Positions 26,053 through 56,862 of a stretch of 64,000 bases of DNA are shown here, piece after piece. The position numbers were made by a program, and so were the translations under genes. The stretch comes from Candidatus Poribacteria bacterium (GTDB lineage: Bacteria > Poribacteria > WGA-4E > WGA-3G). The notes below the pieces were generated by a model. The model ran no database searches, was not told where the DNA came from, and saw nothing but the letters and a program-made list of their open reading frames with translations. The stretch is from NCBI GenBank assembly GCA_965198235.1, contig OZ240248.1:1120001-1184000 (forward strand), read 5' to 3'. The stretch's first letter is position 1, and each line of letters starts with the position of its first letter.

Positions 26053-26081
26053 TTGACAAACTTTTGAAGACATGGTATAAT
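26053..26081 (+). promoter_or_regulatory. Consensus sigma70 promoter of the respiratory supercluster
   Basis: TTGACA-N17-TATAAT with extended TG; second candidate GTGACA-N18-TATAAT at 26204-26233. Confidence 0.85.
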
Positions 26082-26301
26082 AATTAACGCTCATGCGCGA
26101 AATTGCGGTGGTGAACTTTAGTGTGCTATTACTTCAACCAATCTGGAATTGATGCGTGTGTCCTGTTTGTGCAGAGTGGACTTTCAAGTGCAGAAAAATT
26201 TTGGTGACATTTATTTGAGATTTGGGTTATAATATTTGCGGTTTACCTTGTAATTCGTGGGTGTTGCGCGTAAGCGTTACCCTACAAGATCGGGGGTATA
26301 A

Positions 26302-26790
26302 GTGGTATCTCGACGTAAATTTTTTAAATTTCTCGGCTGGGGGAATTTCGTTGCAGCGTTAGGTTTGACCTTCGGACCGGGATTGGTTCGGTATTTGTAT
26401 CCACGCGTGCTGTTTGAACCCTCCTCTATTTTTAAAGCAGGATTTCCAGCAGAATATCCACCGGGCAGCGTTAGTGAAAAATTCAAAAAAGAGCCGTTTG
26501 GTGTTTGGATTGTCCGGAAGCAAGACGGTGAATTCTACGCGCTCTTAACCACTTGCACACACCTCGGGTGCACGCCGCGCTGGCTCGGTTCTGAAAACAA
26601 ATTCAAGTGTCCATGTCACGGTAGCGGTTTCGACCGGGAAGGCGTTAACTACGAAGGTCCTGCGCCACGACCCCTCGAACGTGTTAAAATTACATTGGCA
26701 GAAGATGGTCAGATCGAAATCAACAAGGCTGTGAAGTTTTTAGGTGAGAAGGGGCAGTGGACGGACCCAAGCTCCTTTTTGAAAGTTTGA
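26302..26790 (+). CDS. Rieske 2Fe-2S subunit
   Basis: Tat motif SRRKFF; CTHLGC and CPCHGS; GPAPRPL. Confidence 0.96.
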   Translation: MVSRRKFFKFLGWGNFVAALGLTFGPGLVRYLYPRVLFEPSSIFKAGFPAEYPPGSVSEKFKKEPFGVWIVRKQDGEFYALLTTCTHLGCTPRWLGSENKFKCPCHGSGFDREGVNYEGPAPRPLERVKITLAEDGQIEINKAVKFLGEKGQWTDPSSFLKV

Positions 26791-26909
26791 AGAAAGGAGA
26801 GCATTTGTGCCTGGCTTCCGTCAGGTAGAAAAGGCGTTTCGACGTTGTAGGGCGCGCAGTTTCAAAGCCTATATTGCTAACGTACACGTCGAAACTTGCT
26901 AAAAAACGT

Positions 26910-27680
26910 ATGAACGAAGAACGTAAAGGGCTCAAAGAAAAGATTACGAATTCCGACATTTGGCGCTCTATGTTCCGCCACGGATATGAAGATACGGGGC
27001 GCCGTTACACCTTACAGGTCCTCCAAAACGTCTGGTTGCATCTCCATCCTCCCCGGATTTCTCGGCACGCGCTGAACTTCCGATTCACATGGTGCATGGG
27101 CGGCATCACGTTCCTTATGTTTCTCGTGACAGCCGTCACTGGCGTACTCCTGATGTTCTACTACCGGCCAACAGCTGAATACGCGTTCCACGATGTCCAG
27201 TACCTCGAATTTGACATTCCGTTCGGGATGCTCCTGCGGAACATGCACCGCTGGTCGGCACACGGAATGGTTATCTCAGTGATGCTGCACATGTTCAGGG
27301 TTTTCTTGACCGGTTCCTATAAGAAACCTCGAGAATTCAATTGGGCAGTCGGGGTCATCTTGTTGCTTGTGACATTTTTCCTGAGTTTCACCGGCTATCT
27401 ATTGCCGTGGGATCAGTTGGCGTTTTGGGCTGTGACTGTCGGGACGAACATGGCACGTGCAACACCGGTTTTAGGGCATGAAGGCCCATTTGCCCCGCAA
27501 GACATCACACAATCCAACGATGTCCGATTCGCGCTGCTCGCGGGTACAATCGTAGGTCCCTCAACGTTGTTGAGGTTCTATATTTTACATTGTGTTGCGG
27601 TTCCCTTGTTGGCAAGCGTCCTGATGGCTTTGCATTTCTGGCGGGTCCGTAAAGATGGTGGTATCTCTGGACCTCTATAG
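26910..27680 (+). CDS. Cytochrome b6-like N-terminal subunit
   Basis: WCMGGITF (heme ci-type Cys), His ligands, GYLLPWDQ, C-terminal GISGPL. Confidence 0.95.
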   Translation: MNEERKGLKEKITNSDIWRSMFRHGYEDTGRRYTLQVLQNVWLHLHPPRISRHALNFRFTWCMGGITFLMFLVTAVTGVLLMFYYRPTAEYAFHDVQYLEFDIPFGMLLRNMHRWSAHGMVISVMLHMFRVFLTGSYKKPREFNWAVGVILLLVTFFLSFTGYLLPWDQLAFWAVTVGTNMARATPVLGHEGPFAPQDITQSNDVRFALLAGTIVGPSTLLRFYILHCVAVPLLASVLMALHFWRVRKDGGISGPL

Positions 27681-27769: not shown

Positions 27770-28636
27770 ATGGAGCATTTTATAGCACTGGTGACGAAGC
27801 CGGATAATGTCCCCATTGTTGCTATTCTCTTTTTGATACCTTATTTTATCTGGCTTTCATACCGGCAGGCACGCCAGACAGATAAAGCAGGGGTCCCCTC
27901 GGATGCCGCTCTTAACGATAAGGTTTACGTGTGGCCCTATCTGTGTCGGAATGAGTTTATCTGCGCTATTATTGTGATGCTCGTGCTCGGTGTATGGTCG
28001 ATTATGATTGATGCACCGCTTGAGGAACCGAGCGATCCAACGATGACACCGAACCCTTCTAAAGCACCGTGGTATTTCCTCGCACTGCAAGAGATGCTCG
28101 TTTATTTCGATCCGTGGGTCGCTGGCGTGGTACTCCCAGGACTGATTATCGCAGGCTTGATTGCTATTCCATACATTGACATTAATCCGAAGGGTAAGGG
28201 GTATTATACAATAAAAGAACGTCCCTTCGCGCTCGCAGTATTCACCTTTGGATTTATCATTTTATGGATCGTTTTGATGGTAGTCGGTACATTCCTGAGA
28301 GGTCCCGGATGGAACTTCTTCGCGCCTTGGGAAGCGTGGGATCCACATCTTGTTGTTCCACTGACAAACGTGAATTTATCGTATCTTTTCGGCATCCGCG
28401 ATGCGGATACTGCGAACTTCTTCGGGTTTGTTGTGGTTGCAGGCTATTTCGCTATCGGTCCCATCTTCTACTTATGGAAATGTAAAAGTAGCCATTTCTT
28501 GCAGGAGCTCGGTCTTGTCCGATATATCGTCGTTTCATTTCTGTTTCTAACTATGTTCGCATTGCCGATAAAAATGATGCTACGCGTAGTTTTAAATGTG
28601 AAATACATCTGGGTATCCCCGTGGTTCAACATTTAA
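27770..28636 (+). CDS. Cytochrome b subunit IV-like protein
   Basis: TPNPSKAPWYF (PEWY equivalent), PYID, multiple TM helices. Confidence 0.88.
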   Translation: MEHFIALVTKPDNVPIVAILFLIPYFIWLSYRQARQTDKAGVPSDAALNDKVYVWPYLCRNEFICAIIVMLVLGVWSIMIDAPLEEPSDPTMTPNPSKAPWYFLALQEMLVYFDPWVAGVVLPGLIIAGLIAIPYIDINPKGKGYYTIKERPFALAVFTFGFIILWIVLMVVGTFLRGPGWNFFAPWEAWDPHLVVPLTNVNLSYLFGIRDADTANFFGFVVVAGYFAIGPIFYLWKCKSSHFLQELGLVRYIVVSFLFLTMFALPIKMMLRVVLNVKYIWVSPWFNI

Positions 28637-28815
28637 AAATAGCAGTCAGCAGTCAGTCGTCAGCAAAAAGGTTTGTGAGAGTTCTAACGTCTTTCTTCTT
28701 AGCCTAGAAAACGTAAGCCCAACCAACGGGCCGGGCTGGCTTTACGAAAAGGAACGTCAAAGTCCAAACCCGCTTGAACGAACCGCAAGGAAAATTAGAA
28801 AAAGGAGAAAATTTC

Positions 28816-31800
28816 GTGAGGGACAAAAAGGAAATTCCTGCTGAGAGTAAGTCGTACTCTGCTTTGTTCTTTATTCTGTCCGGATTGTTAGGGCTGGTAA
28901 CCTTATGGGGATTCTGGAATGAGATGATTACCCGTCGTCCATGGAAGCAGATCCAGCAGCAATTTTATCAATATGAGTATGAAAAAACACACGCCGAATT
29001 GGAGAACGCAAAATTGGTGCTACCTGAACTTCCTACACTTCAAGAGCCTGACGCGAAAGAACTCGGAAGGTTAACGAAGGAGGTCAGGAATGCCCAAGTT
29101 TCCTTAGACGAAGCCTTACAGGAACGTAAGTTCCGACAGAGCGAGTCGGATGCGATTAACTATAAATATCAGCACAGCCTCCACGAAGCGAAGGGTAAAC
29201 ACAATGAGACTGTTGACAAGTGGCAGAAAAAGTTAGCAGATTTTGAATCCCAAATTGAAGGTGAACTCACCGAAGCCGTTTTGGGAGCGGAAGTTACCTT
29301 TGCAAACGCGAACAAAGCTTTGGCGCAGTTTTATCAAGCCAATGGAGACGCACAAAGTGCCCTGAGCACCTACCTCACCGCCCAGAAATATAACCCTACA
29401 GATACGGAAATTGCTGCCGGTATCACCGCCGCGCAAGCATCCCTTCAATCACTGCAAGCCGACGAAGCAAAATACGACGAAGTTACGCGTCTTGAAGAAA
29501 AACTACATTCGGTGGGAGGTATCAAGCGAACCTTCCTCGGCAGTCTTTTGGAAAATCCTTTCCGTGAAACACGAACCATCGTTCAATACTATCTTGAAGA
29601 CTTTGATTACACCGCAGACAGGTGTGCTACATGCCACTTCTCCGCTGATGGAGACGGGTACGAACGATCCGCGCAAGAGATGTTTGAGGTGGAAGGTGAT
29701 GGTGAAAATCCTGTTGTACATCGTCTCAAACACGCAAGCGTTAAGGTCGGTAGTGAGAATGTTATAATAGATGGATTTGACGCAGAAGCCGATGAATATA
29801 AATTGGAAGAAAACGGGACGCTTACCTTCAGTGACGTAGATGTCTTTGGTGAAATTGAAATCTCTTATGAGACCGGTTACCAGCCCGTCCTTCAAACGCA
29901 TCCCCATCGCGATGTCCTTCTCGCCAAACACCCGGTTGATAGATTTGGATGTACCCCATGCCACGGTGGGCAGGGTCAAGCACTCACAGCGAAAGCCGCT
30001 CACGCCTTGACGCACGCCGAGTACTGGCTCACCCCTGCACTCGGATTGGATGAACATACCGGTAGAACGTCCGAAAAGACGAAAGGATATATGGAATCTA
30101 ACTGTCGCCGCTGCCACGATGGCGTGATGATGTTAGATTACGGCGTGAACCCCGATACAGATGAACCCCAGGACTATGCACCGAATTTAACGAAGGGATT
30201 GGCAGTCTTTGAAGACCTTGGATGTCACGGATGTCATGCTGTTGAAGGGTATAGTGCACTCGAAAACATCGCCAAAGTTGGTCCATCACTTGCGAAAGTC
30301 GGCAGTAAGGTGAAAGATACAACGTGGCTTGAAAGTTGGATTAAGAAACCCGAAGCGTACCTGTCGAATACGACAATGCCGAATTTCTTCCCCGCCGATG
30401 GCATGACGCAGGTCGTCTACCTTAAAAACGGTGGAATACGTACCGGCCTTGTTACCAAAACAGCCGGGGGCATCGTCATTAAAGCGGACGATGGCGCAGA
30501 GTATCCCTACCCTGACAGTTATGTCCTTCGCATTGTTGATGAGGTGAAATCTATCGCAGCTTACCTCGCCGGGATGAACGATGTGGACTTGGATGAATCC
30601 AATGCGACTTATTCCGAATCTGAGCGCGCTATTAAAGCCGGTCAAGAGACGGTCAAGACCGTTGGTTGTCTGACGTGCCATGCTGTTGATGGCTTAGGCA
30701 GTGATTTTGCCCCGGCACTCGACAGTGTTGGCACTAAGGTTACAGCGAGTTACCTCCACCAATGGATTAGCGATCCAAAAGCGTACGACCCAGATACGAG
30801 TATGCCGAGTTTGCGGTTAAGCGCCAGCGAAGTTGACAACGTTGTCGCTTATCTGATGAGTTTGCAACAAGCAACGACCCACGCAGTTACCGAATCCATC
30901 GGTGAGGTGGATGTAGCGGAGGGTGAGACACTCGTCAGGACCTACGGATGTTTCGGTTGTCACACGATTCCCGGTTTTGAAGATGAGTCAAAGGTCGGTG
31001 CAGATCTCGGAGAATTCGGCGCGAAGACTACTGAGGAGTTTGATTTCGGCGACACAGTGGACATTGAACACAGTTGGACGGGGTGGACGCTCGGTAAGGT
31101 TACCAACCCACGACGTTATCAAACCCGCCGTATCGTTTCTCGAATGCCTCTTTTCCAAGTCAGCGACGAAGACGCGAAGGCACTTGCAGTGCTTTTGAAA
31201 AGTTTCCAACCCGAGAAGTATCCGCTGGGTTATATTCATAACCGATCCGAGAAATTGAACGACATTGATGCTGGTAGGCGATTGGTCAAAAAATATAACT
31301 GCACCGGATGCCACGAGATTGAAGGTGCCGGTGGCGATTATCAGGATGTTATCATCGCACACGAAGGGTTAAGTGAGATGATTGCCAAGCAGTTGGCACC
31401 GCCACCGTTGAAAGCGGAGGGCGCAAGGGTCTACCCAGACTGGTTATTTGCGTTCCTCAAAGAACCGTCAGAAATCCGCTACGGACTCAAGGTACGGATG
31501 CCGACATTCGGATTATCTGATGATGAAGCGACAACGCTGGTCAGGTACTTCTCCGCGCTTGATGATGAACCGTTCCCTTATGAAACGCTCGAAACGCCAA
31601 TACCGACGAGTGCTGAATTACGAGTCGGTAAGCAGATTTTTGATACACTTCAGTGTATCTCCTGTCACCCGGCAAAAGGTGAGACAATTCCTGAAGGAAG
31701 TGACAAGGCAGGACGACCAGATCTTGCGTTGGCGAAAGAGCGACTCAAGGCGGATTGGCTCATTGATTGGATGAAGGATCCGCAGACGTTCCAACCCGGA

Positions 31801-31929
31801 ACAGCGATGCCGCAAGCATGGCCCCTCGTTGGTGGGCAACACATGCCACTTGATGGCTATGCTGACGATGATGCTGAAAAACAAATTCGACTCGTCCGAG
31901 ATTACCTCATCTCCTTGGGACGTTTTTAA
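28816..31929 (+). CDS. Membrane-anchored octaheme cytochrome c
   Basis: 8 CxxCH motifs (CATCH, CTPCH, CRRCH, CHGCH, CLTCH, CFGCH, CTGCH, CISCH); N-terminal TM helix and coiled coil; GTG start after AAGGAG. Confidence 0.93.
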   Translation: MRDKKEIPAESKSYSALFFILSGLLGLVTLWGFWNEMITRRPWKQIQQQFYQYEYEKTHAELENAKLVLPELPTLQEPDAKELGRLTKEVRNAQVSLDEALQERKFRQSESDAINYKYQHSLHEAKGKHNETVDKWQKKLADFESQIEGELTEAVLGAEVTFANANKALAQFYQANGDAQSALSTYLTAQKYNPTDTEIAAGITAAQASLQSLQADEAKYDEVTRLEEKLHSVGGIKRTFLGSLLENPFRETRTIVQYYLEDFDYTADRCATCHFSADGDGYERSAQEMFEVEGDGENPVVHRLKHASVKVGSENVIIDGFDAEADEYKLEENGTLTFSDVDVFGEIEISYETGYQPVLQTHPHRDVLLAKHPVDRFGCTPCHGGQGQALTAKAAHALTHAEYWLTPALGLDEHTGRTSEKTKGYMESNCRRCHDGVMMLDYGVNPDTDEPQDYAPNLTKGLAVFEDLGCHGCHAVEGYSALENIAKVGPSLAKVGSKVKDTTWLESWIKKPEAYLSNTTMPNFFPADGMTQVVYLKNGGIRTGLVTKTAGGIVIKADDGAEYPYPDSYVLRIVDEVKSIAAYLAGMNDVDLDESNATYSESERAIKAGQETVKTVGCLTCHAVDGLGSDFAPALDSVGTKVTASYLHQWISDPKAYDPDTSMPSLRLSASEVDNVVAYLMSLQQATTHAVTESIGEVDVAEGETLVRTYGCFGCHTIPGFEDESKVGADLGEFGAKTTEEFDFGDTVDIEHSWTGWTLGKVTNPRRYQTRRIVSRMPLFQVSDEDAKALAVLLKSFQPEKYPLGYIHNRSEKLNDIDAGRRLVKKYNCTGCHEIEGAGGDYQDVIIAHEGLSEMIAKQLAPPPLKAEGARVYPDWLFAFLKEPSEIRYGLKVRMPTFGLSDDEATTLVRYFSALDDEPFPYETLETPIPTSAELRVGKQIFDTLQCISCHPAKGETIPEGSDKAGRPDLALAKERLKADWLIDWMKDPQTFQPGTAMPQAWPLVGGQHMPLDGYADDDAEKQIRLVRDYLISLGRF

Positions 31930-32163: not shown

Positions 32164-32520
32164 ATGAGACACCTTGCGGTCGTTATCGTTATGATTATTG
32201 TGTGGCTCAACGGCTTAATCTGGTTGGGGAAGCAGGTCGACCCGAGTACGAAGTATCAGTCAGAGGTTGAATACAAGTACGCTCGGTACTGCGCAGGATG
32301 CCATGGAAACAATGGAGAGGGCAACGGACGTATCGGACGTTTCAAAAAATTGGATCCCGCAGACCTAACGGACAACAACCTTTGGGAGATGCACAGCGAT
32401 GAGCAATTGCTGGATAGTATCAATACGGGGAAAGATGATATGCCAGCGTTTTACTATTACCTCAATGATGAGGAACAACGGGAGATACTCGCCTATATTA
32501 AGGAGACGTTTCGTCCGTAA
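32164..32520 (+). CDS. Monoheme cytochrome c
   Basis: CAGCHG, distal MP, N-terminal hydrophobic segment. Confidence 0.9.
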   Translation: MRHLAVVIVMIIVWLNGLIWLGKQVDPSTKYQSEVEYKYARYCAGCHGNNGEGNGRIGRFKKLDPADLTDNNLWEMHSDEQLLDSINTGKDDMPAFYYYLNDEEQREILAYIKETFRP

Positions 32521-32765: not shown

Positions 32766-33515
32766 ATGAAAGTTTTAGTCGCTTTGCTTGTCTTTGGAAT
32801 GCTGGCGAGTGTTGCGTTCGCAGGCAACATCACCGGCACCGTAATGTATGAAGGCGACGCACCCGCGCGTCCTGACTTGACAGCAACCAAGGACCAGCAT
32901 TGTATTGACGCTGTAGCAGGCACAAAATCCGAGGCACTTGTTGTCTCAAAAGGGAAAGGTCTCAAGAACGTTGTCATTTACGCGCGCGTCCGCGGTGCCA
33001 AAGTTACTGTGCCAGATAAAAATCCCGTCATGGACCAGAAGGGATGCGCTTACTACCCGCACGTTCTCGCGGTTGTTGCCGGTTCTACCATCGATATTAC
33101 CTCCAGCGACCCAGTGGCGCACAACGTCCACTCCCACGCCAAAAAGAATGACGCGATAAACTATCAGATTCCGCAGCCCGGAAAAGCTATCCCACACAAA
33201 GTCGCCAAGGCTGAAGATATTAAGTTCACGTGCGATATCCACGCGTGGATGACCGGCTACATCGTCGCGGTTAATAGCAACTATTTTACGGTCACCGGTT
33301 ACAAAAATGCTGAGGACGGATGGCTCAGTTCAGGTGCGTATGAAAAATCAACGGATCCCGGCAATTATACAATCGCAGATGTGCCTGCTGGTACGGTCCG
33401 TGTCGTTGCATGGCATGAAGAACTCGGTTCAGCAAACAAAAAGGTTGAAGTTCCAGCGAGTGGCGATATTGCTGTAAACTTCACGAGTGCTGACTTTAAG
33501 AAACGCGCCAAGTAA
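32766..33515 (+). CDS. Secreted cupredoxin-like/carboxypeptidase-regulatory-domain protein
   Basis: Signal peptide; DQKGC..PHV, HNVH, CDIHAWM (potential type-1 Cu ligands). Confidence 0.8.
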   Translation: MKVLVALLVFGMLASVAFAGNITGTVMYEGDAPARPDLTATKDQHCIDAVAGTKSEALVVSKGKGLKNVVIYARVRGAKVTVPDKNPVMDQKGCAYYPHVLAVVAGSTIDITSSDPVAHNVHSHAKKNDAINYQIPQPGKAIPHKVAKAEDIKFTCDIHAWMTGYIVAVNSNYFTVTGYKNAEDGWLSSGAYEKSTDPGNYTIADVPAGTVRVVAWHEELGSANKKVEVPASGDIAVNFTSADFKKRAK

Positions 33516-33699
33516 TAGTTCGCAACAAATTCTATTAAAAGCCGCCGCGGGTCGGTGAATACCCGCCTTAATTTACAACAGAAAGAGGCGGCGTTCTTCC
33601 CCAAAGTAGTAGGGTCTTTAAAAGCCACACGCGGCTTTCTCCCTCCGTATGCCGTTCACAATGGATGCCTAAAGTTGGGGTGCCACGCCGGGATTTTTG

Positions 33700-35616
33700 A
33701 TGACGAAAATATCTAAAAAAAGGCTCTATCTCATACTTGGCTGTGTACTTATCGCTTATGCCGTGTTAGCCGTTGCGCCGGTGTTTGCACAGGACGCGAC
33801 CGAGGCTGAATATCGCACCTTCCCAAAGATTGGCAGCCGAAACGCAGCATGGATCGCTGCGCAACTCCACCTGTTATTCGGATCTTTTATTCTCGGTGTC
33901 CCGATGTTCGCCGTTATCATCGAATTTATCGGCTGGAAGACGAAGGACATGCGATACGATCGGATGGCGCAAGAGTTCATTAAACTCTGTATGGGTGCGT
34001 TTTCGACGACAGCCTTACTCGGTGGTGTTCTCGTCTTCATCCTCATCTGGTGTTACCCCAAAGTGATGACGAAGCTCAGTGGGATATTCGGACCGACGAT
34101 GATTTTTTACGTTGTCCTATTCTTCGGGGAAACCTTTACGCTTTACCTTTACTCCTACGGATGGGATAAGATGCAGGGACACCATAAAGGGTGGCATCTT
34201 TTCCTTGGTGTTCTCTTGAATGTGTTCGGCACTGCGATCATGTTCGTTTCTAACTCATGGTTGAGTTACCAAACCAGTCCTGCAACCCAATACGGTGTAC
34301 TATCTGAAGGAAGACGGAAATCTTGGATAGAGGAAAAATTGGCTGCAGATCCAGCACTCACGCCTGAAACCGCTATGGAGGGGGTCACAAGCCATACGAC
34401 AGTGCCGCTCCACAACGAGACAACAGGCGAGTTCATGGGGACCGTTTGGGATGCCGTCAACAATTTTACGTGGATGCCTGTTAATATCCACCGCCTCGTC
34501 GGGAACATCGCTTTCGGAGGATCGATTGTAGCGGCTTATGCCGCGTTCCGATTCCTCGTCGCCAAGACGAAAGAGGACAAAGCACACTACGATTGGATGG
34601 GCTATACTGGAAACTTCATCGCACTCTGCGGACTCATTCCACTGCCTTTCCTCGGCTATTGGCTCGGTAGAGAAATCTACATGTTCAATAACACGATGGG
34701 CATTAACATGATGGGGAGTCTGTTCTCTTGGCTATTTATTATTCAGGCAGTGATGATTGGTGTCCTGTTTATTGGGGCAAACTACTATCTTTGGTCAGGC
34801 ATGGGGCGGATTGAAGGGGCAGAGGTCTATGCGCGCTATCGTCCGTATATGATTACCGTTATCATTATCTGTGTTGCAATCTGGATGACGCCACGGACAC
34901 TCTCTAAGATCTCAAGTGCCAATGAACTGAGCGCGATGGGCGGTGCAAACCACCCACACCTCGGATTGTTCGGCTTGATGACTGCCAAAAATACGGCGGT
35001 TAACATCATTATTCTCACCACTTTCTTGAGTTTCCTATTTTATCGGCGTTCAGGCAAAATACCTACGGCGAGTTGGAAAAAGGTTGGCAATATCGCTATC
35101 TCTTCGGTCTTTTTCCTCGCGACTGTCTCAATTGTCGTTATCGGTATCGTCGGATTTACCGTTCCGACAGATTTACGGGTCAATATCCTTACGCCTTATC
35201 AGGTCCTGGTTGCGCTCGCTGTGATGGCAGTCGTAACAATCGTCGATATTTTTATGTACCGCAAGGCGACAACATCTGGCACCATTAAATGGGGAGAGAT
35301 GACAGATCGCTCACAATATGTGTTAATTCTTGTGGCAATTACGTTTACTTCCTTGATGGGACTGATGGGATACGCGCGCTCAGGGCTTCGAGAGGCGTGG
35401 CATATCTTCGGGGTCATGCAGGATACGTCTGCTGATGCCTTTACCCCGCTTCTCAGTGAGGCAGTGAATATGGTGGCAATCATCATGGTAGTCTTCTTTG
35501 CGCTCGTCGGGTTTATCTTCTGGCTCGGTTTGTGGGGCGAAAAGAAGAAGGAAGAGCCAGCAGCTATCACCGAACCAACTGTTGCTGCGGAAGGTGATTC
35601 AGAAACCCGCTCGTAA
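33700..35616 (+). CDS. Cytochrome bd-like oxidase subunit I (CydA-like, Nitrospira-type), no CydB partner
   Basis: AQLHLLFGSFILGVP, FFGETF, SNSWL, NIHRLVGN, MGYARSGLR..W; about 14 TM segments. Confidence 0.85.
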   Translation: MTKISKKRLYLILGCVLIAYAVLAVAPVFAQDATEAEYRTFPKIGSRNAAWIAAQLHLLFGSFILGVPMFAVIIEFIGWKTKDMRYDRMAQEFIKLCMGAFSTTALLGGVLVFILIWCYPKVMTKLSGIFGPTMIFYVVLFFGETFTLYLYSYGWDKMQGHHKGWHLFLGVLLNVFGTAIMFVSNSWLSYQTSPATQYGVLSEGRRKSWIEEKLAADPALTPETAMEGVTSHTTVPLHNETTGEFMGTVWDAVNNFTWMPVNIHRLVGNIAFGGSIVAAYAAFRFLVAKTKEDKAHYDWMGYTGNFIALCGLIPLPFLGYWLGREIYMFNNTMGINMMGSLFSWLFIIQAVMIGVLFIGANYYLWSGMGRIEGAEVYARYRPYMITVIIICVAIWMTPRTLSKISSANELSAMGGANHPHLGLFGLMTAKNTAVNIIILTTFLSFLFYRRSGKIPTASWKKVGNIAISSVFFLATVSIVVIGIVGFTVPTDLRVNILTPYQVLVALAVMAVVTIVDIFMYRKATTSGTIKWGEMTDRSQYVLILVAITFTSLMGLMGYARSGLREAWHIFGVMQDTSADAFTPLLSEAVNMVAIIMVVFFALVGFIFWLGLWGEKKKEEPAAITEPTVAAEGDSETRS

Positions 35617-46714: not shown

Positions 46715-46860
46715 GACAAACATAATGCGTTCAACAACGATAGCGTTACCAGGTAATACAGAATCTGTAAGACATCTTTCGTAACCCAGACCCAGTTGAC
46801 TTAATCGGAAACCACCGTGAAACATAGTGGAACGGTGACCAGATTTAATAGTTTAAAAAG

Positions 46861-47967: not shown

Positions 47968-48206
47968 ACTCGCCAGAGCATCGCAAGCGAAATCGTCACC
48001 TTGGACTCATTTTATGTCTACTGTTTGCAGGATTGTTTGTCATCGTAACGACTGCAATTATTACGGGCAGCAAAGCACCTCAATCTGTTGAAAGTGTCGT
48101 CAAGGGTCTGGTTGTCCCTGTTTTGGGTGTCATCGGGTTGCTACTGATTATCGCGGCGGTCGTTGAGGTTGTTCTTCGGATTTTAAAAAATAGAGCGCGT
48201 GAATGA
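47964..48206 (+). CDS. Small 2-TM membrane protein
   Basis: GGAGG RBS, two hydrophobic helices, overlaps coxC start. Confidence 0.7.
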   Translation: MNSPEHRKRNRHLGLILCLLFAGLFVIVTTAIITGSKAPQSVESVVKGLVVPVLGVIGLLLIIAAVVEVVLRILKNRARE

Positions 48207-48784: not shown

Positions 48785-48807
48785 ACATCGTGGAGGAAAT
48801 CATAAAA

Positions 48808-49044
48808 ATGCAAGGGTTTTTTGTATGGGCTTCCATCTTGATACTCGTCATGCTTATAGTCCCGATGTCCCTTGAGGCATGTCCAGGCTGTAAAGAACTT
48901 GATGATCCTATCAATAAGGGTTTTAATTGGAGTATCCTTTTTCTGATGGCGATGCCGTTTACGGTTTTCGGTCTCATCGGTGGCACAGTTTATTTACATT
49001 ACCGACGTGCAAACAGGAAACCGACGGATCAAGAAACCATCTAA
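48808..49044 (+). CDS. Small CxxC membrane protein
   Basis: GGAGG RBS; signal-like segment, ACPGCK, then TM SILFLMAMPF. Confidence 0.7.
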   Translation: MQGFFVWASILILVMLIVPMSLEACPGCKELDDPINKGFNWSILFLMAMPFTVFGLIGGTVYLHYRRANRKPTDQETI

Positions 49045-49148
49045 TCAAGATAGTTGTTAGTTATCAGGACACACTTAAAACTGGATTCTGATAATTCCAA
49101 ATCCTTCTTTAACTGATAACCGATAGCTAATATAAGGAGTTAAATGTA

Positions 49149-49799
49149 GTGGAACACGCTACCACTTTAGATCATACTGAAGATATATATGAACCTTCGC
49201 TTACGCCGGATAGCCTTGGCAAACTCGGCATGTGGATTTTCCTCGCTGGAGACACCATGTCGTTTGGCGCACTGCTGGCGACTTATGCCGCGATCCGTGT
49301 GGGTGCAGGCGCAGTCGGATGGGCCCCGCCAAGCGAGGTTCTCGGCATTAACCTAACCGCATTTATGACATTCCTGCTGATATGCAGTAGTGTCACTATG
49401 GTGAAAGCGTTGGAGTCGATTCAGAACGGCAATGTCTCACGCATGTGCATGTTCCTTGGGTTGACGATCGGGGGAGGAGTCATCTTCCTTGGGCTACAGG
49501 CTTATGAATGGTATCATCTAATCCATCACGGATTGACGCTTACTGGTATCCCTGACCACGGGTTGTCAGGTGCAGCGATTAGCGGCTCGAACCTTTTTGG
49601 TCCCACTTTCTACGCCATCACAGGTTTCCACGGAATGCACGTGACCGGGGGTGTCATTTATCTCTTGGTTATCTTGATACACGGCTTACGCGGCAGATAT
49701 ACAGCTGAGTTTAACCATGAGGTAGAGATCGTCGGGCTCTATTGGCACTTCGTCGATCTTATTTGGATTATGGTCTTCACCTTCATCTATCTAATATAG
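49149..49799 (+). CDS. Heme-copper oxidase subunit III (copy 2)
   Basis: GKLGMWIFL, TGFHGMHV, GLYWHFVDLIW. Confidence 0.93.
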   Translation: MEHATTLDHTEDIYEPSLTPDSLGKLGMWIFLAGDTMSFGALLATYAAIRVGAGAVGWAPPSEVLGINLTAFMTFLLICSSVTMVKALESIQNGNVSRMCMFLGLTIGGGVIFLGLQAYEWYHLIHHGLTLTGIPDHGLSGAAISGSNLFGPTFYAITGFHGMHVTGGVIYLLVILIHGLRGRYTAEFNHEVEIVGLYWHFVDLIWIMVFTFIYLI

Positions 49800-49811
49800 G
49801 AGGACAGGAAA

Positions 49812-50147
49812 ATGGCACAGGACGGACACAAAGAGCATCCGAAATACATGAATATTTTCTGGTGGCTCCTTGCACTCACCATTATTGAGATTGCTGTAGC
49901 AATCCCTGATTACGTTGCTATACTCAAAGGCATACTACTCATCGGACTCGCATGTTCTAAAGCACTCTTAGTTGCTAATTATTTCATGCATCTGAAGTTT
50001 GAAAAGAGGACGTTGGCGATTATCGTGGTAACGCCTTTCTTTATCTGCGTTCTACTCGTTTTCGCGTTGATGCCCGACCTCACATCAGATGCACGGCACG
50101 GGGAAATAGAGAAACCGGCGGAAGTTGTGGATACGTCATCTCACTAA
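49812..50147 (+). CDS. Cytochrome c oxidase subunit IV
   Basis: LTIIE, KA.LV..YFMHLKFE. Confidence 0.9.
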   Translation: MAQDGHKEHPKYMNIFWWLLALTIIEIAVAIPDYVAILKGILLIGLACSKALLVANYFMHLKFEKRTLAIIVVTPFFICVLLVFALMPDLTSDARHGEIEKPAEVVDTSSH

Positions 50148-50518: not shown

Positions 50519-50588
50519 ACGGACATAACAACACTTCAAGAAGAACACGTTCATCGGCTTCTTAAATTTGACGCTTATGGTGCTGGGT

Positions 50589-51227
50589 ATGGAAACACAA
50601 ACTGCCAATACCAATAAAGTTAAACGGCGACTTGACAAAAGCACCCTGATCTGGGTAGTGCTGGGTGTTATTATTATCGGCATCGCGGGGATTAACCTAT
50701 GGTCGGTATTTGATACCAAACCGGAGATGCCAGTCTCTAAAAGTACCGCTGTCGGCGTGCCGGACTTTAGCCTGACGACGCAGCAGGGAGAGCCGCTAAC
50801 ATTGTCCGACATGAAGGGCAAAATTTGGGTCGCAGACTTTATCTTCACCAATTGCCCAACCATTTGTCCGGCAATGACACAGGAGATGGCACGTCTTCAA
50901 TCCGAATTTGTTGCGGATCCGGTCTATTTCGTCTCCTTCTCCGTGGACCCGGAACGAGATACATCAAAGGTCCTTTCGCGCTACGCAACGGCTTATGGTG
51001 CTGACGATAGACGTTGGCACTTTCTTACTGGGGACAAGGCGCATATCTATCAGTTAGCCGAAGACGGGTTCAGTTTAGCCGCGGGACACAACGGCACCGA
51101 AATACTTCATAGCACGCGGTTCGTTCTCATCACGCCGGATGGGAACATCTATGGCTACTACGATAGTCGAAGCAAACCGGCGCTGCTGCGTCTACGGCGG
51201 GATGTCAAGGCACTCCTCGAAAAATGA
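50589..51227 (+). CDS. SCO family copper chaperone
   Basis: FIFTNCPTICP, SVDPERD, HS.RF. Confidence 0.95.
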   Translation: METQTANTNKVKRRLDKSTLIWVVLGVIIIGIAGINLWSVFDTKPEMPVSKSTAVGVPDFSLTTQQGEPLTLSDMKGKIWVADFIFTNCPTICPAMTQEMARLQSEFVADPVYFVSFSVDPERDTSKVLSRYATAYGADDRRWHFLTGDKAHIYQLAEDGFSLAAGHNGTEILHSTRFVLITPDGNIYGYYDSRSKPALLRLRRDVKALLEK

Positions 51228-51493
51228 AAGATGTGAACCTCTTAATCTCCCTCGCGGCTTTTGTGATTCATTTCACGTTCGGATTTTTCCGTGGCGGGTT
51301 TAAGAGATTCAGCCGTCCGTGGAGTAGATGTCTCTACATTCCGATCGTTATTAACATCGTTGTGCGGCGTTTTGTTCTCCACTGGGACTGGCAAACCGCG
51401 ATGGTTTACCTATGGCCCGCAACGTTGATCGCCCATGTCCTCGGTGGTTTTCTGGGGGCGCGTTACAGAAAAGATGAACAGGATGAGCTGTAG
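51224..51493 (+). CDS. Small membrane protein
   Basis: ATGA overlap with SCO gene; hydrophobic segments. Confidence 0.65.
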   Translation: MKDVNLLISLAAFVIHFTFGFFRGGFKRFSRPWSRCLYIPIVINIVVRRFVLHWDWQTAMVYLWPATLIAHVLGGFLGARYRKDEQDEL

Positions 51494-51621
51494 AGATATG
51501 GGCTGGCTCCCCTAACCCGAAAGACCGAAACCATAGCCCGTAACGTAGTGGAGGGCGACTCTTGGGGAAGGCGCGTGGAATACGAAACCTACGTTGTTCT
51601 CCCGCAAGGAAAATTAAAAAA

Positions 51622-53526
51622 ATGATAAAAAAAATTTACGTACCCGTTGACAATTCGGACTACTCGGACGCGAGTATCGCTCTATCAGTTGCGTTCGCGA
51701 GGAAGTTCGGATCCCAATTGGTAGGTTCGCACGTTTACGCCGCAAAAATGCACGATGTTCGCTTTAAACAGATGGAGTACACCCTGCCAGAAGAATATCA
51801 GGACGAGGTCGAACTTGAAAAGCAGCGTCGTATCCACGATACGCTCATTACCATGGGGCTACAGCTGATCTCGGATTCCTATCTTGAGGTGATGAAGCAG
51901 AAGTGCACTGAATTTGGGATTCCATTTGAAGCGAGAATGCCGGAAGGCAAACACTTCATAAAACTCGTTGAAGACATTCAGGAAGGCGATTACGATCTTG
52001 TGATTATGGGCGCACTCGGTATGGGTGCCGTCAAGGATAGCCTCATTGGTGGGGTCTGTGAACGCGTCGTCCGCCGTATTAATACCGATACGCTTGTCGT
52101 CCGGGACCTCGAATCGATTGAAGAGAGCGAGGGAAATATCCTCGTCGGAATTGATGGAAGTCCGGAGTCTTTCTCAGGCTTGAAAACCGCGATACAACTC
52201 GGACAAATGCTCAATAAACAGGTCGAAGCCGTTGGTGTCTACGATCCCTATCTACACTACATCGTCTTCAATTCTGTTGTGAATGTGCTCACGGAACGCG
52301 CCGCGAGGACTTTTAGATTTAAAGAGCAGGAGCAACTCCACGAAGAGGTAATAGATACAGGCTTGGCAAAAATCTATCAGTCACATCTGGAGGTTGCACG
52401 CTCTATTGCAAAAGAGGAACACGACTACGCTCTAAAAATTACCCTGCTTGATGGAAAAGCCTACGAAAAGATTCTACAATACGTACGAAAAACAAACCCA
52501 TGGCTCCTGGTCTTGGGCAGAATCGGAGTCCACAGTGAACAGGATATGGACATCGGTAGTACTGCCGAAAATCTGTTGCGTCTGGCACCTTGCAATGTCC
52601 TCTTATCGAGTCAACGCTATTTCCCACAAATCGATGTGAAAGCGGAAGAGACGCTCGTCTGGACGCAGGAGGCTTTAGATAGGATGGAGAAAGCACCACC
52701 CCTCGTGCGCGGCATCGCCAAGACAGCCGTCCATCGGTTCGCTATAGAACGCGGGCATTCCGTCATTACCGAGAGCGTCATTGACATGGCGATGGAAGCA
52801 ATTATGCCACAACGTGCTTCTGAAAAGTTGACACGTGTCGCCAAGGAAATCGCCGAACAGAAAGTACTGGAATCGGATGCCGTACAAACGTACATCTGTG
52901 GCGAATGTGGCTACGCCGCGCACAATCAACAACCCGTGAGATGTCCCGTTTGTAGTTCGGCACCGGAGCGTTTTCAGAGGGTTGACAAGGGGTCATTGCA
53001 GAATATCGCTGTAGATGAGGGTGGCGCTGCCGAGGAAGAGACGTTTGACGGCGTGCGACTCCAGTGGTCGGAACAGGCGAAAAAGGCACTGCGGCGTGTC
53101 CCGCGCGGCTATATGCGCCGAAACGTCAAAGCGCGCATTGAGAAATCCGCACGTTCTCAAAAGATTGCCACTATCACAAACGCCTTCGCAACCGAAATTA
53201 TTGACGACAGCATGGGTGAAGCGGCAGCAGTCCGCGAAGATGCTCCCGAACTCAGAGCCGTACAAGCGCAGAGCGGTCCCCAAAATGCTGAGGTCATTCA
53301 GAATTTTGAAAGTCCAGTACAATGGACGACGGAGGCGGTCGAACGCTTAAACTTAGTGCCTGCTGGATTTATGCGGAATATTACGCAAACTCGGATTGAA
53401 CAGCGGGCGCAAGAGAACAACCTTAACCAAGTTACGCTTGATTTCGCCGCACGGGTCATTGAGGACGGTAGAAGTCTTGCCAATGAGGTGCTTGGGCAGT
53501 ACTATCAACAGTCAGATCAGGATTGA
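51622..53526 (+). CDS. Tandem-USP protein with rubredoxin-like knuckle and three PCP_red-like repeats
   Basis: VPVDNS and VGIDGS USP starts; CGECG..CPVC; three W(T/S)xxA..(R/K)..P..(V/M)R repeats. Confidence 0.85.
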   Translation: MIKKIYVPVDNSDYSDASIALSVAFARKFGSQLVGSHVYAAKMHDVRFKQMEYTLPEEYQDEVELEKQRRIHDTLITMGLQLISDSYLEVMKQKCTEFGIPFEARMPEGKHFIKLVEDIQEGDYDLVIMGALGMGAVKDSLIGGVCERVVRRINTDTLVVRDLESIEESEGNILVGIDGSPESFSGLKTAIQLGQMLNKQVEAVGVYDPYLHYIVFNSVVNVLTERAARTFRFKEQEQLHEEVIDTGLAKIYQSHLEVARSIAKEEHDYALKITLLDGKAYEKILQYVRKTNPWLLVLGRIGVHSEQDMDIGSTAENLLRLAPCNVLLSSQRYFPQIDVKAEETLVWTQEALDRMEKAPPLVRGIAKTAVHRFAIERGHSVITESVIDMAMEAIMPQRASEKLTRVAKEIAEQKVLESDAVQTYICGECGYAAHNQQPVRCPVCSSAPERFQRVDKGSLQNIAVDEGGAAEEETFDGVRLQWSEQAKKALRRVPRGYMRRNVKARIEKSARSQKIATITNAFATEIIDDSMGEAAAVREDAPELRAVQAQSGPQNAEVIQNFESPVQWTTEAVERLNLVPAGFMRNITQTRIEQRAQENNLNQVTLDFAARVIEDGRSLANEVLGQYYQQSDQD

Positions 53527-53728: not shown

Positions 53729-54011
53729 ATCTCTCTCCAATCTGGAGTTTCCCATTTTCACAAACGAAGGCTATGTGATAGAAGCAGGACATGAGTTTCT
53801 GGAATATAGTATGGGGAGTTTATCAAAAATAATGCCTTATCAGTCGAATGGTCCTGATAGAGGCGTGTGGACAGATTTTTAAGCTATTAACTCTGGTCAC
53901 CGTTCCACTTCGTTTCACGGTGGTTTTCGGTTAACTCCGAACAGTTATTGTTAAGCGAAAGTGCGCAGCTTGAAACGAAGTGGAAAGCGGATATACGTAA
54001 AGGAACGTTCA

Positions 54012-55304
54012 ATGCGAAACCCACCTCACCGAACCGCAAGGAAAATTGGAAATACACTAACACTCCTACTTGGGGTGTTTATCCTTGTCGCGAATGGTTT
54101 TACTGACAATTGGCACCAGTGGCGCGGACCGAACAACGACGGTGTCAGCCAAGAGACCGATGCGCCTATCCAATGGAGCCAAACCGAGAACGTCCGATGG
54201 CGTTTGCCACTTCCCGGTGCCGCCGCCTCTACCCCCGTTGTCTGGGAAGATAAAATTTTCCTCACCTCTGCTGAAGGCAATGCACTTGTTTTGATGTGTA
54301 TCAGTACCGGAGGTGAAGAACTCTGGAAGCGGACTTTAGGACGTGGCAACCGCGTCGTCAGCGGCGGCGAAGGCAATTCTGCCGCTCCCTCTCCCGTAAC
54401 CGATGGCGAACACGTCTGGGCGTTCCTCGGCACTGGGGATCTTGCCTGCTACGATTTCGATGGGAATCAGGTTTGGCACACCAATCTCGCCGACCGTTAC
54501 GGCAGGTTTAACCTCTATTTCGTCATGTCAACAACCCCGCTGCTTGATAAGGATCGGCTTTACATCCAACTCATCCACAGCAATGCATGGCTCGTACTGG
54601 CACTCGACAAAATGACGGGGAAAGAGATCTGGAAGCATAAACGCAAAAGCGACGCAACTGAGGAGTGTGAACACGCCTATACCTCTCCTATTCTCTACCG
54701 TGATTCAGAACGCGAATATCTCGTTGTACACGGCGCAGACTATGTCACTGCTCACAGCCTCAATGATGGCAGTGAAATCTGGCGGTGTGGTGACTTGAAT
54801 CCGAAGGAGCGTTATAACTACTCCCTCCGATTCGTCGCTTCTCCCGTTGCAATGGAGGGGCTCATCGTCGTCCCCTCAGCGAAAAACGGGCCTGTTGTGG
54901 GCATTGATCCGGCTGCACAAGGCGATATTACGAACGGTAAGTGGCAACGTTGGAAACTTCGACAAGGCACGCCAGATGTCCCGTCCCCGCTTATCCATGA
55001 CGGTTTAGTTTATCTCTGTCGAGAAAACGGTGATCTGATATGTCTTGATGCCGAGACGGGCAAACAACTCTATCGAGAAGGGACACATCGCCACCGACAT
55101 CGCGCCTCGCCGATCTATGCGAATGGGTTTGTCTACCTTACATCTCGAGACGGTGTTATCAATGTCGTGAAGGCGGGACGTGAATTTGAAATCGTTGCCA
55201 GGAACTCCATGGGGGAAGCCATCGCCGCATCTCCTGTTATCGCAAACGGGACGCTCTATCTGCGCAGCTATCAGGCACTCTATGCCATCGGTGGGAAAGA
55301 ATGA
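54012..55304 (+). CDS. PQQ-like beta-propeller repeat protein
   Basis: NWHQWRGP, repeated SP/TP-x-W blades. Confidence 0.9.
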   Translation: MRNPPHRTARKIGNTLTLLLGVFILVANGFTDNWHQWRGPNNDGVSQETDAPIQWSQTENVRWRLPLPGAAASTPVVWEDKIFLTSAEGNALVLMCISTGGEELWKRTLGRGNRVVSGGEGNSAAPSPVTDGEHVWAFLGTGDLACYDFDGNQVWHTNLADRYGRFNLYFVMSTTPLLDKDRLYIQLIHSNAWLVLALDKMTGKEIWKHKRKSDATEECEHAYTSPILYRDSEREYLVVHGADYVTAHSLNDGSEIWRCGDLNPKERYNYSLRFVASPVAMEGLIVVPSAKNGPVVGIDPAAQGDITNGKWQRWKLRQGTPDVPSPLIHDGLVYLCRENGDLICLDAETGKQLYREGTHRHRHRASPIYANGFVYLTSRDGVINVVKAGREFEIVARNSMGEAIAASPVIANGTLYLRSYQALYAIGGKE

Positions 55305-56194
55305 GGACTTACAAAGAACTCCCAAGCGATGCCGGCTCCAACATTATCGGGCAAGTCACGGCGCAGGTGAACCGACTCCAGAAACGGCTCGCTTCTGTCA
55401 AGCACACAGTCGCGATTATGAGCGGGAAAGGCGGAGTCGGCAAGAGCTCACTCACTGCGAACCTCGCCACCGCCCTCACGCTGAAGGGTAACACTGTCGG
55501 GGTCGTCGATGCTGACATCAACGGACCGACGCTTGCCAAGATGATGGGGGTGCGTAACGCTACGTTGGAATACACACCCGCGGGAGTCAAGCCTGCTGTT
55601 ACCGCACTCGGCACGAAACTTATCTCTATGGATCTACTCTTGGCAGAAGACGATGCCCCGGTACTCTGGAGTGCTCACACCCAGAAGGACGCGTTCACGT
55701 GGCGTAGCACGATGGAGGTCGGCGCGCTCCGAGAGTTCATCGCCGATACCGAGTGGGGAGCACTGGATTACCTCCTGCTCGACCTGCCACCCGGAACCGA
55801 CCGGCTTCCGAACGTGGCAGAACTCATCCCCGACCTTGGCGGTGTAGTCGTCGTGACAATCCCGTCTGAGGTCTCGCAACTCATCGTCAAGAAATCGGTA
55901 ACAATGGCGAGAGACATTCTCAAGGTCCCAATCATCGGTGTTGTCGAAAATATGGCTTTCTATGTCTGTCAGCACTGCGGCGAGGCGGAACCCCTCTTTT
56001 CCACCGACGAGACACTGGACACTGCATTCCAGCAGGTAATCCTCGGTAGTGTCCCCTTTGATCCGAGACTCGCCCGTTCCAATGACGACGGCACCCTTTA
56101 TCTTGATGAATACCCGGACGCTCCCGCGAGCAAGGCACTCATGCAGGTGGTTGAAAAAGTTCAAGCGTTTTTTGAATGTAGGACGAACTGTTAG
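55301..56194 (+). CDS. Mrp/NBP35 (ApbC) P-loop Fe-S carrier ATPase
   Basis: SGKGGVGKS, DADINGP, DLPPGT, ENM..CQHC. Confidence 0.93.
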   Translation: MRTYKELPSDAGSNIIGQVTAQVNRLQKRLASVKHTVAIMSGKGGVGKSSLTANLATALTLKGNTVGVVDADINGPTLAKMMGVRNATLEYTPAGVKPAVTALGTKLISMDLLLAEDDAPVLWSAHTQKDAFTWRSTMEVGALREFIADTEWGALDYLLLDLPPGTDRLPNVAELIPDLGGVVVVTIPSEVSQLIVKKSVTMARDILKVPIIGVVENMAFYVCQHCGEAEPLFSTDETLDTAFQQVILGSVPFDPRLARSNDDGTLYLDEYPDAPASKALMQVVEKVQAFFECRTNC

Positions 56195-56331
56195 TTTGTG
56201 CCCCTTTCGTAACACATTAGCTGCGAGCCGCGCAGTCCGTAACGAAGTGGTTCTCACTGCGAAGCAGGTTCTACGGAGAGGCACGTAAAATACTTTACCC
56301 GTCTCACCGAACCGCAAGGAATAATTAAAAG

Positions 56332-56862
56332 ATGAAATTCTTATGTACAGACTGTGACACAGCGATGAAATTTAAAGACGTGACCCGTCCCGAACAAGGC
56401 TCCGTGACAGCACTTTTTGAATGTCCTGACTGCTTTACAGAGATCGCCATGTTCCTCAATCCGTCGGAAACCCAGATGCTGAAATCCTTGGATCTCAAAC
56501 TCGGTGGGAATAACGAAGCGGCGCAACCGATGCAGATGGTACGTTCACAGTTGGAGACCGCAAAGAGCGAAGCGATGCCTAACGAGTTTTCCCCAGAAAT
56601 GAGTTCGGGTGAAACGACTGAAGGGGGCAAATGCCCCTTTACCTCCGTCATCTCGGACGCATTTCAGGAAGAGTCTGAACCCGCCGAACCGAGCGGTCCC
56701 GTCTGGACAGCGGAGGCACTCGAACGCTTAGAGCGGATTCCAGCGTTTGTTCGTCCGATGGCGAAGATGGGGATCGAAAGTTTTGCCAAAGACAACGGCT
56801 ACGATGAGATTACAGCCGAAGTCATGGATGCCGCACGCGGAAACTTCCCCGCACAGTTCTAA
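56332..56862 (+). CDS. Zn-ribbon plus PCP_red-like domain protein
   Basis: CTDC..CPDC, GKCPF, WTAEALERLERIPAFVR. Confidence 0.8.
   Translation: MKFLCTDCDTAMKFKDVTRPEQGSVTALFECPDCFTEIAMFLNPSETQMLKSLDLKLGGNNEAAQPMQMVRSQLETAKSEAMPNEFSPEMSSGETTEGGKCPFTSVISDAFQEESEPAEPSGPVWTAEALERLERIPAFVRPMAKMGIESFAKDNGYDEITAEVMDAARGNFPAQF

Follow-up and report, generated by a model that had tools for sequence, protein, structure and literature searches.

The 64,000-nucleotide stretch of a Candidatus Poribacteria genome analysed here (contig OZ240248.1, positions 1,120,001 to 1,184,000; referred to as the window, with coordinates counted from its first letter) carries 28 plus-strand genes between 26302 and 56862. 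They bring together a Rieske/cytochrome b complex with an octahaem cytochrome c, a cytochrome bd-like module built around a CydA-like subunit, and a family A1 aa3 oxidase. By sequence, the CydA-like subunit fits OR-N2, a group that Murali et al. (bioRxiv 2021.01.16.426971) defined within the cytochrome bd superfamily. We give an even chance to the reading that the OR-N2 module is a second, cytochrome-c-fed O2 reductase beside aa3. The parts of the cluster are all of described kinds; as a variant, their arrangement is linked to aa3, lacks nitrite oxidoreductase (NXR) and has lost haem b ligands.

The genome (G000) comprises 5.17 Mb and is 96.3% complete and 5.3% contaminated. In the open reading frame list of the window, no long opposite-strand gene interrupts the cluster. 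An initial annotation, made from the DNA alone, had described around 28 plus-strand genes with 14 CxxCH motifs behind a perfect promoter, and this was borne out by the reading frames, motif counts and families. The motifs (8+1+2+1+2 = 14) are spread over five proteins, and Pfam/NCBIfam matches were obtained for Rieske, cytochrome b6, subunit IV, the N-terminal half of CydA, EB_dh, an ABC-2 pair, CoxB/CoxA, CtaA/CtaB, two COX3, COX4, SCO, USP, Mrp and PCP_red.

The CydA-like subunit and its partner cytochromes

The bd-like module consists of the following genes (TM, transmembrane):

33697..35616, + strand: OR-N2-type CydA-like subunit without Q-loop, a signal helix preceding 14 predicted TM helices (fold, alignment, model)
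35656..37167, + strand: dihaem cytochrome c, 2 TM, which other organisms encode as a fusion with the CydA-like subunit (CxxCH, fusions)
37398..38174, + strand: monohaem cytochrome c, 3 hydrophobic segments, predicted to pair with the CydA-like subunit (CxxCH, complex model)
38177..39889, + strand: Kustc0457-like dihaem cytochrome c to which an EB_dh/NxrC-like domain is fused, C-terminal TM (families; Trp433/Arg525, no Met/Lys ligands)

The CydA-like protein counts 639 amino acids and contains no CxxCH motif. In its AlphaFold2 model (mean predicted local distance difference test, pLDDT, 91.5) 14 long helices follow the signal helix; hydropathy alone gives 11 segments. The fold matches 10 solved CydA chains with Z 31-34 (Foldseek E 3e-8 to 8e-6) and ActC with Z 20.3 (root-mean-square deviation 4.0 over 316 residues). 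His58, His167, His265, His569, Glu145, Met554 and Met557 are invariant in 82/82 aligned homologues. In the E. coli numbering after Murali et al. (bioRxiv 2021.01.16.426971), His58 corresponds to His19 (helix I), His265 to His186 and Glu145 to Glu107. The Q-loop (Lys252/Glu257) is absent: the alignment with canonical CydA stops just past the His186-equivalent helix, and TM helices occupy the place of the loop in the model. The features that mark canonical qOR enzymes (a CydB partner, the Q-loop, Glu99 and Glu445) are all lacking here. A canonical, quinol-oxidising cydAB is encoded around 33 kb upstream of the cluster (L102:6749-9389; G000 C1 ~1110750-1113390) and provides the sole PF02322 match, the cluster itself having no CydB or second CydA-like partner. 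An OR-N1 partner was not found in the genome either, where the only other CydA is that of canonical cydAB. OR-N2 has been described as often lacking a second CydA in the operon (Murali, Gennis and Hemp, bioRxiv 2021.01.16.426971).

The placement within OR-N2 was made by proxy: the protein groups with the Nitrospira copy that lies downstream of Rieske/cytochrome b (43-46% identity), and the upstream paralogues (32-34%) form a long outgroup. With the OR-N2 of Murali et al. (bioRxiv 2021.01.16.426971), the Nitrospira NIDE0901-like/bd-like_2 proteins and TO_1 of Ca. Manganitrophus it shares a 14-TM CydA homologue without quinol site that keeps the His19 equivalent and often stands alone in its operon, together with two cytochromes c and an EB_dh/NxrC-like protein; the core of TO_1 is the same (bioRxiv 2021.11.15.468770). 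The Poribacteria version differs from the known OR-N2 systems in that it has neither an OR-N1 partner nor NXR, and in that its EB_dh domain carries neither Met/Lys nor His/Lys ligands. It also sits between the Rieske/b-octahaem genes and an A1 aa3 oxidase, an enzyme absent from Nitrospira (PMC6606698).

Association within the module was examined by modelling, as the initial annotation had proposed, and the complex of the CydA-like subunit with the monohaem cytochrome c passed its controls. It scored 0.74, the best of three controls 0.00, on a scale whose mark was reached by 116/157 solved complexes and 2/215 mismatched pairs and is a rough one here, with our own alignments. The runs agreed in at least 75% of the contacts, with a partner pLDDT of at least 79, and the model supports binding of the monohaem cytochrome c to the CydA-like subunit. 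For the dihaem cytochrome c, fusions to the CydA-like subunit exist in P0122 and L052.

The EB-dehydrogenase-gamma-like character that had been assigned to the module holds for the domain match; the haem b ligands are lost. Trp433 and Arg525 of the EB_dh-like domain align to Met108 and Lys201 of EbdC, the haem b ligands of that protein. Among 82 EB_dh rows, Met and Lys occur together in 8, namely 7 of anammox type and 1 from an archaeon, the latter adjoining an NxrA-like gene, and His with Lys in 9 rows from Nitrospira. The Poribacteria rows have Trp/Arg in 10 of 11 cases and Tyr/Arg in the remaining one. The NxrA-linked EB_dh copies of genomes G010 and G029 do carry Met and Lys, whereas the G010 copy adjoining the CydA-like gene does not.

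Conservation in Poribacteria and distribution in other phyla

The CydA-like query matched 150 of 176 Poribacteria genomes, one match being weak (G158) and one genome distant (G010). Within the families f1-f3 the module is present in 148 of 152 genomes, which are kin and do not represent independent events. The CydA-like gene and coxA were both listed in 144 genomes, on the same contig in 131 and on different contigs in 13. In 131/131 same-contig genomes coxA lies 8.7-14.8 kb downstream of the CydA-like gene on the same strand, and the linkage for which a synteny check had been suggested is therefore conserved across close relatives. The gene order is kept, in some cases with insertions, in 10 loci fetched from three families. 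Nine of these span Rieske to USP and the tenth starts inside the octahaem gene; mrp and the zinc-ribbon gene follow in 8 of the 10. The relative G029 (94% complete) lacks the module and has Rieske-b6-IV-octahaem-cupredoxin-ABC-coxBA-ctaAB-cox3-cox3-cox4 in one run. Such an operon implies that the path from the bc-type complex to aa3 is complete on its own, and that the module is a side branch.

For the other phyla, counts refer to the best 80 of 593 GTDB loci, many of which have incomplete flanks; flanks are full in 36. The dihaem, monohaem and EB_dh proteins were found in 74, 73 and 72 of the best 80; for the full-flank loci the numbers are 35, 36 and 36. The best 80 derive from Acidobacteriota, Gemmatimonadota, Rhodothermales, Latescibacterota, Myxococcota, NC10, anammox bacteria and others. 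The module had been called characteristic of Nitrospira and Nitrospina; it does resemble theirs and that of anammox bacteria, but it is spread over many phyla and not confined to nitrite oxidisers. Among the best 80 loci, coxA lies within 10 kb of the module in 14 (Gemmatimonadota, Latescibacterota, Rhodothermales and others) and Rieske/b lies near it in 9. One locus of a Myxococcota metagenome-assembled genome (L021) contains two OR-N2 modules in divergent orientation, and that genome has 14 matches to the type II dimethyl sulfoxide reductase alpha subunit.

A description of the Poribacteria cluster was not found in the literature searched, which included passages of PMC10732223, PMC8076601, PMC8239418 and PMC8115632 but not most subscription papers; supplements such as the distribution tables of Murali et al. 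may list Poribacteria OR-N2.

Separation from nitrite oxidation

The module has been tied to NXR in PMC3578206 and PMC6606698, and Kuenenia kustd1713-1709 encode a cupredoxin, a CydA-like protein, a dihaem, a monohaem and a dihaem cytochrome, with uspA nearby (PMC6423088). The cluster shares the order cupredoxin/CydA-like/dihaem/monohaem/dihaem, and the USP and zinc-finger companions, with Kuenenia kustd1713-1706 and Nitrospina gracilis (PMC3578206, PMC6423088). In contrast to those NXR clusters it lacks nxrABC and the chaperone, has lost the haem b ligands of the gamma-like domain, and is followed by aerobic oxidase genes.

A search with TIGR03479 at E 1e-60 missed some true NxrA (two of the three Nitrospira genomes and one of the four anammox genomes gave zero matches) and was therefore redone with an NxrA-like protein query. 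This query recovered 4/4 anammox and 3/3 Nitrospira genomes, and 12 of 50 other-phyla carriers of the module in total. An NxrA/Nar-like gene was found with it in none of the 148 module-bearing f1-f3 genomes, this genome included; over the whole phylum the protein query matched 8 of 176 genomes and the profile search 7. Given this absence, the module cannot serve NXR in these genomes, and without a nitrite-oxidising enzyme the bd-like complex likely has a general respiratory job, probably O2 reduction.

The role suggested for the module in Nitrospira, Nitrospina and Kuenenia, that of anchoring NXR or a periplasmic nitrate reductase in the membrane, consequently appears very improbable here, and for this organism that explanation has already failed. 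It draws on the gene order of kustd1713-1709 with uspA nearby (PMC6423088), on the proposals in PMC3578206 and PMC6606698, and on the distant Poribacteria genome G010, where the module adjoins an NxrA-like gene. Against it stand the missing NxrA/Nar-like alpha subunit, in this genome and in the 148 module-bearing f1-f3 genomes, and the Trp/Arg pair in place of Met/Lys in EB_dh. In G010, a single run (L104:228-15193, G010 C25) includes a cupredoxin, the NxrA-like gene, two dihaem-EB_dh genes and the CydA-like module. Elsewhere in G000, a molybdopterin oxidoreductase gene with one in-frame TGA (C1:3088009-3089277, minus strand) possibly encodes a selenocysteine formate dehydrogenase.

The Rieske/cytochrome b complex and the aa3 oxidase

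The genes upstream of the bd-like module are:

26302..26790, + strand: Rieske 2Fe-2S protein (PF00355; ligand boxes at residues 85 and 103)
26874..27680, + strand: cytochrome b6, N-terminal half of a split cytochrome b (four haem b His and haem ci Cys74, aligned to solved b6)
27770..28636, + strand: subunit IV-like protein, ~6 TM, with APWY replacing PEWY (PF00032)
28774..31929, + strand: membrane-anchored octahaem cytochrome c with 8 CxxCH, start likely near 28816 (motif count)
32164..32520, + strand: small monohaem cytochrome c (family match, CxxCH)
32766..33515, + strand: cupredoxin-like protein 1, type-1 copper motif and beta-sandwich tail (motifs; paralogue of 40160-40942)

The closest solved relatives of the cytochrome b are b6 subunits, and the features expected of a b6f-type complex are present: a split cytochrome b with four haem b His, the haem ci Cys, the Rieske ligands and a neighbouring octahaem cytochrome c. 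The Qo motif of the subunit IV-like protein reads APWY and not PEWY. The octahaem protein is 29% identical to the one adjoining the same module in a Scalinduaceae locus. An operon of Rieske, split cytochrome b and octahaem cytochrome c is known from Nitrospina, Kuenenia and Methylomirabilis (PMC3578206). The three-gene b6f-like operon with octahaem cytochrome c is shared with that complex, and the haem ci Cys is found here; in the Poribacteria version, unlike there, the operon opens with this complex and closes with an aa3 oxidase. A second Rieske gene, paired with an unsplit cytochrome b, lies elsewhere in the genome (L103:5843-7569, minus strand) without an adjoining cytochrome c gene.

Downstream of the module follow:

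40160..40942, + strand: cupredoxin-like protein 2, likely carrier to CuA (copper motifs; cupredoxin kept in G029)
41085..42978, + strand: ABC-2 exporter, ATPase and permease, DrrA/DrrB-like (family matches; in 10/10 Poribacteria loci)
43047..43715, + strand: CoxB, CuA motif intact, not fused to a cytochrome c (TIGR02866 above cut-off)
43736..45559, + strand: CoxA, family A1 haem-copper oxidase subunit I (active-site residues; PF00115)
45662..47787, + strand: CtaA (haem A synthase) and CtaB (haem O synthase) (family matches)
47964..48206, + strand: small two-TM protein without family (in 5/10 relatives' loci)
48203..50147, + strand: two COX3 genes with a small CxxC membrane protein between them, and COX4 (family matches)
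50568..51493, + strand: SCO copper chaperone, followed by a conserved small membrane protein at 51224-51493 (family match, conservation)

The A1 ligands of CoxA are complete (His117, 301, 350, 351, 436 and 438, with Glu303 and Tyr305 in a GHPEVY motif with the cross-linked Tyr), as are residues of the D-channel (Asp147, Asn136, Asn154) and the K-channel (Lys379). CoxA is the sole PF00115 match in the genome and thus its only haem-copper enzyme. The CuA site of CoxB (His154, Cys189, Glu191, Cys193, His197, Met200) is of the type found in cytochrome c/cupredoxin oxidases and not in quinol oxidases; a CoxB without CuA was considered and rejected on this ground. Metal ligands, channel residues and CuA motif are all shared with family A1 aa3 oxidases that have CtaA/CtaB/SCO. 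The present oxidase differs from these by two COX3 genes, a subunit II without cytochrome c and the ABC-2 pair in front. The two cupredoxin-like proteins lack a cupredoxin Pfam match. Nevertheless, their initial assignment is upheld by the HNVH and CxxHxxM type-1 copper motifs in both and by a weak match to a blue copper protein (E 0.016), and the electron donor to aa3 is probably a cupredoxin. The 78-residue protein encoded between the COX3 genes (48808-49044) has a signal peptide, a CxxC motif and a TM segment, recurs in 10/10 relatives' loci and is possibly involved in copper handling.

Proposed function and alternative explanations

In the proposed scheme, quinol would be oxidised by the Rieske/b complex, and electrons would pass over the octahaem cytochrome c to a periplasmic pool comprising the monohaem cytochrome c and the two cupredoxins. 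Cupredoxin 2 would then deliver them to CuA of the proton-pumping aa3. The same pool would feed the CydA-like subunit via a dihaem, a monohaem and a dihaem-EB_dh cytochrome of its own, all membrane-bound, with which it would make up a single complex. For OR-N, a reduction of O2 fed by cytochrome c has been proposed (Murali et al., bioRxiv 2021.01.16.426971; PMC10839748), while its composition, function and O2 affinity are described as unconfirmed (PMC10839748 and PMC12342949). The initial suggestion of one quinol complex feeding two reductases stands as regards the three modules, their conserved linkage and the association within the bd-like module; the terminal-reductase role of the latter and the supercomplex that it considered remain conjectural. 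Its rationale, adaptation to fluctuating O2, is weakened by the canonical cydAB upstream, with cydB occurring, patchily, in 105 of 176 genomes of the phylum.

Several observations speak against O2 reduction by the module. The position equivalent to Glu99 is an invariant Tyr138, and no Glu occupies the position equivalent to the haem ligand Glu445 in either alignment register, so that the canonical O2 site is not intact. With aa3 and a canonical bd already encoded, a third O2 reductase would be unneeded, and the module adjoins NXR/Nar-like genes in anammox bacteria and an archaeon, where O2 respiration is unexpected. An assay or structure of an OR-N enzyme was not found in the literature searched, with most subscription papers outside that search. 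Finally, co-transcription is not visible in the RNA contigs over 22001-42000. These contigs come from a single sponge study with four metatranscriptome runs and fill 29-30 of the 30 bins, with a depth in the cluster part similar to that of the flanks, and DNA carry-over is possible. Because the flanks are covered alike, neither expression level nor co-transcription can be read from them. Two depth peaks coincide with dispersed repeats.

It is possible, if less probable, that OR-N2 works in the manner of alternative complex III or Qrc, as a charge-moving oxidoreductase that links the quinone pool to periplasmic carriers of high potential. The Poribacteria module would then be a second route from quinol to aa3, or a valve sending electrons back to quinone. 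Among the best 80 loci a QrcA/ActA-like pentahaem protein is encoded upstream in 24 and a QrcB+C/ActB-like protein in 30. The Act/Qrc-like loci that were inspected run straight into the monohaem cytochrome c and the CydA-like gene, leaving no room for an NrfD/ActC gene. In L022:5472-11647 and similar Acidobacteriota loci, for example, ActA/QrcA-like pentahaem, ActB/QrcBC-like, monohaem and CydA-like genes form a run with no NrfD gene between them. The ActC fold match, the missing Glu445 and Glu99 equivalents, the occurrence beside NXR in anammox bacteria, and the Gemmatimonadota loci in which cupredoxin and coxBA follow the module directly point the same way, and such a role was suggested by Lucker et al. 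2013 (PMC3578206). However, the known quinol site (Lys/Glu of the Q-loop) is absent, the CydA matches far exceed that to ActC, and the operon already contains a Rieske/b complex. No PF03916 match and no ActA/ActB-like tblastn match were obtained in this genome, the likeness to ActC being one of fold only. Of 50 other-phyla carriers tested, 26 have a cytochrome b, 41 an NrfD-family protein and only 2 neither. With one or the other encoded elsewhere in 48/50, the module is no general substitute for complex III, and that candidate role was rejected.

We regard it as improbable that the module reduces or detoxifies nitric oxide (NO), or another N-oxide or peroxide, with cytochrome c electrons and so shields the neighbouring aa3. 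Its retention in NO-handling anammox bacteria, NC10 and nitrite oxidisers would suit such a task, as would the reported detoxification of NO by canonical bd enzymes (PMC10839748). Another metal could be coordinated by Met and by the additional conserved His residues (167, 569, 419, 297), and the single PF00115 match, being aa3, leaves the genome without a NorB-type reductase. On the other hand, the cluster lacks an N-oxide enzyme gene, these genomes lack Nxr/Nar, and an NxrA-like gene is missing from 38 of the 50 other-phyla carriers (genomes incomplete).

Accessory genes

The cluster ends with the following genes:

51562..53526, + strand: protein with the tandem domains USP - PCP_red - rubredoxin-like - PCP_red - PCP_red, an accessory of the bd-like module (families, neighbourhoods)
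53961..55304, + strand: PQQ/BamB-type beta-propeller with paralogues elsewhere in the genome, at most a putative respiratory component (family match)
55301..56194, + strand: Mrp/ApbC Fe-S carrier ATPase (family match)
56332..56862, + strand: zinc-ribbon (two CxxC) - PCP_red protein (family match)

The USP/Mrp/PCP_red genes are present in the block as annotated, but by their neighbourhoods they belong with the bd-like module and not with the A1 oxidase: homologues of the USP-PCP_red protein occur beside the module in 51, Mrp in 21 and PCP_red proteins in 27 of the best 80 other-phyla loci. A gene for an AhbD/NirJ2-like radical SAM-PCP_red protein adjoins it in 29. In G000 this gene is located around 310 kb from the cluster (C1:1484480-1485844). 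It follows close behind the cluster in most other genera, is displaced in this genus, and was found in 152 of 176 Poribacteria genomes, G029 giving a weaker match without the module. AhbD (TIGR04545, 318 bits) and NirJ2 (TIGR04055, 306 bits) are the best NCBIfam matches of this radical SAM-SPASM protein. Unlike these, it remains below the cut-offs (500 bits), has a C-terminal PCP_red domain in common with the USP and zinc-ribbon proteins, and travels with OR-N2. Ferrochelatase and a chlorite-dismutase-family protein, possibly ChdC (G000 C1:4419999-4420787), are encoded separately. In locus L101 (6415-7848 and 9734-10147), the AhbD-like radical SAM-PCP_red gene stands after a small membrane protein and before two PhyH-like genes and a small protein resembling a further PCP_red carrier. 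A paper on the radical SAM/PCP_red/USP/Mrp set was not found in the literature searched, which left out most subscription papers.

As a weaker inference, the USP-PCP_red, Mrp and zinc-ribbon-PCP_red proteins might, together with the AhbD-like radical SAM enzyme, make or deliver haem for the bd-like module. A wider proposal, which we advance tentatively and consider rather doubtful, is that OR-N2 is a respiratory enzyme that stands alone in many lineages, has an unusual active site (extra invariant His and Met, no Glu445/Glu99) and receives its haem, made or modified, from this dedicated system. It would serve as a plug-in, quinone-linked, energy-conserving unit coupled to bc, ActAB, NXR or aa3, and Poribacteria would have its NXR-free form, in which the gamma-like domain is a scaffold.

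Promoter, spacers and repeats

26053..26081, + strand: sigma-70-type promoter-like site, TTGACA-N17-TATAAT, 12/12 consensus and extended -10 (motif; putative function)

Perfect consensus sites with 16-18 spacing number 121 in the whole genome and are hence not rare; of nine relatives examined, five have a site with 11-12 of 12 matches 5' of the Rieske gene. The cluster has spacers of 100-430 bp, many of them occupied by dispersed repeats, and a terminator-like and a promoter-like site occur at 53532-53608, in scans whose overall counts equal those of shuffles. The wide, repeat-filled spacers and these sites leave room for several transcription units. The repeats belong to several families (28738-28802, 32052-32167, 37289-37401, 42132-42207, 45594-45669, 53910-54053 and 56255-56331), give around 25-116 BLAST matches genome-wide per spacer, and in some cases stop exactly at start codons. 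Two unrelated secreted proteins that flank the cluster (25018-25806, LamG-like; 58458-60788, Ig-like/LTD) share a similar short C-terminal peptide.

Significance

In the bioenergetics of nitrifiers and anammox bacteria, the OR-N 'bd-like' proteins have been proposed either to be the terminal oxidase or to anchor NXR in support of reverse electron flow. The Poribacteria host, an uncultured bacterium, offers a putative third setting for them. The presence of the module without NXR in 148 of 152 genomes, the lost haem b ligands and the module-less relative separate the enzyme from nitrite oxidation, and the same Poribacteria comparison defines the minimal gene set of the module.

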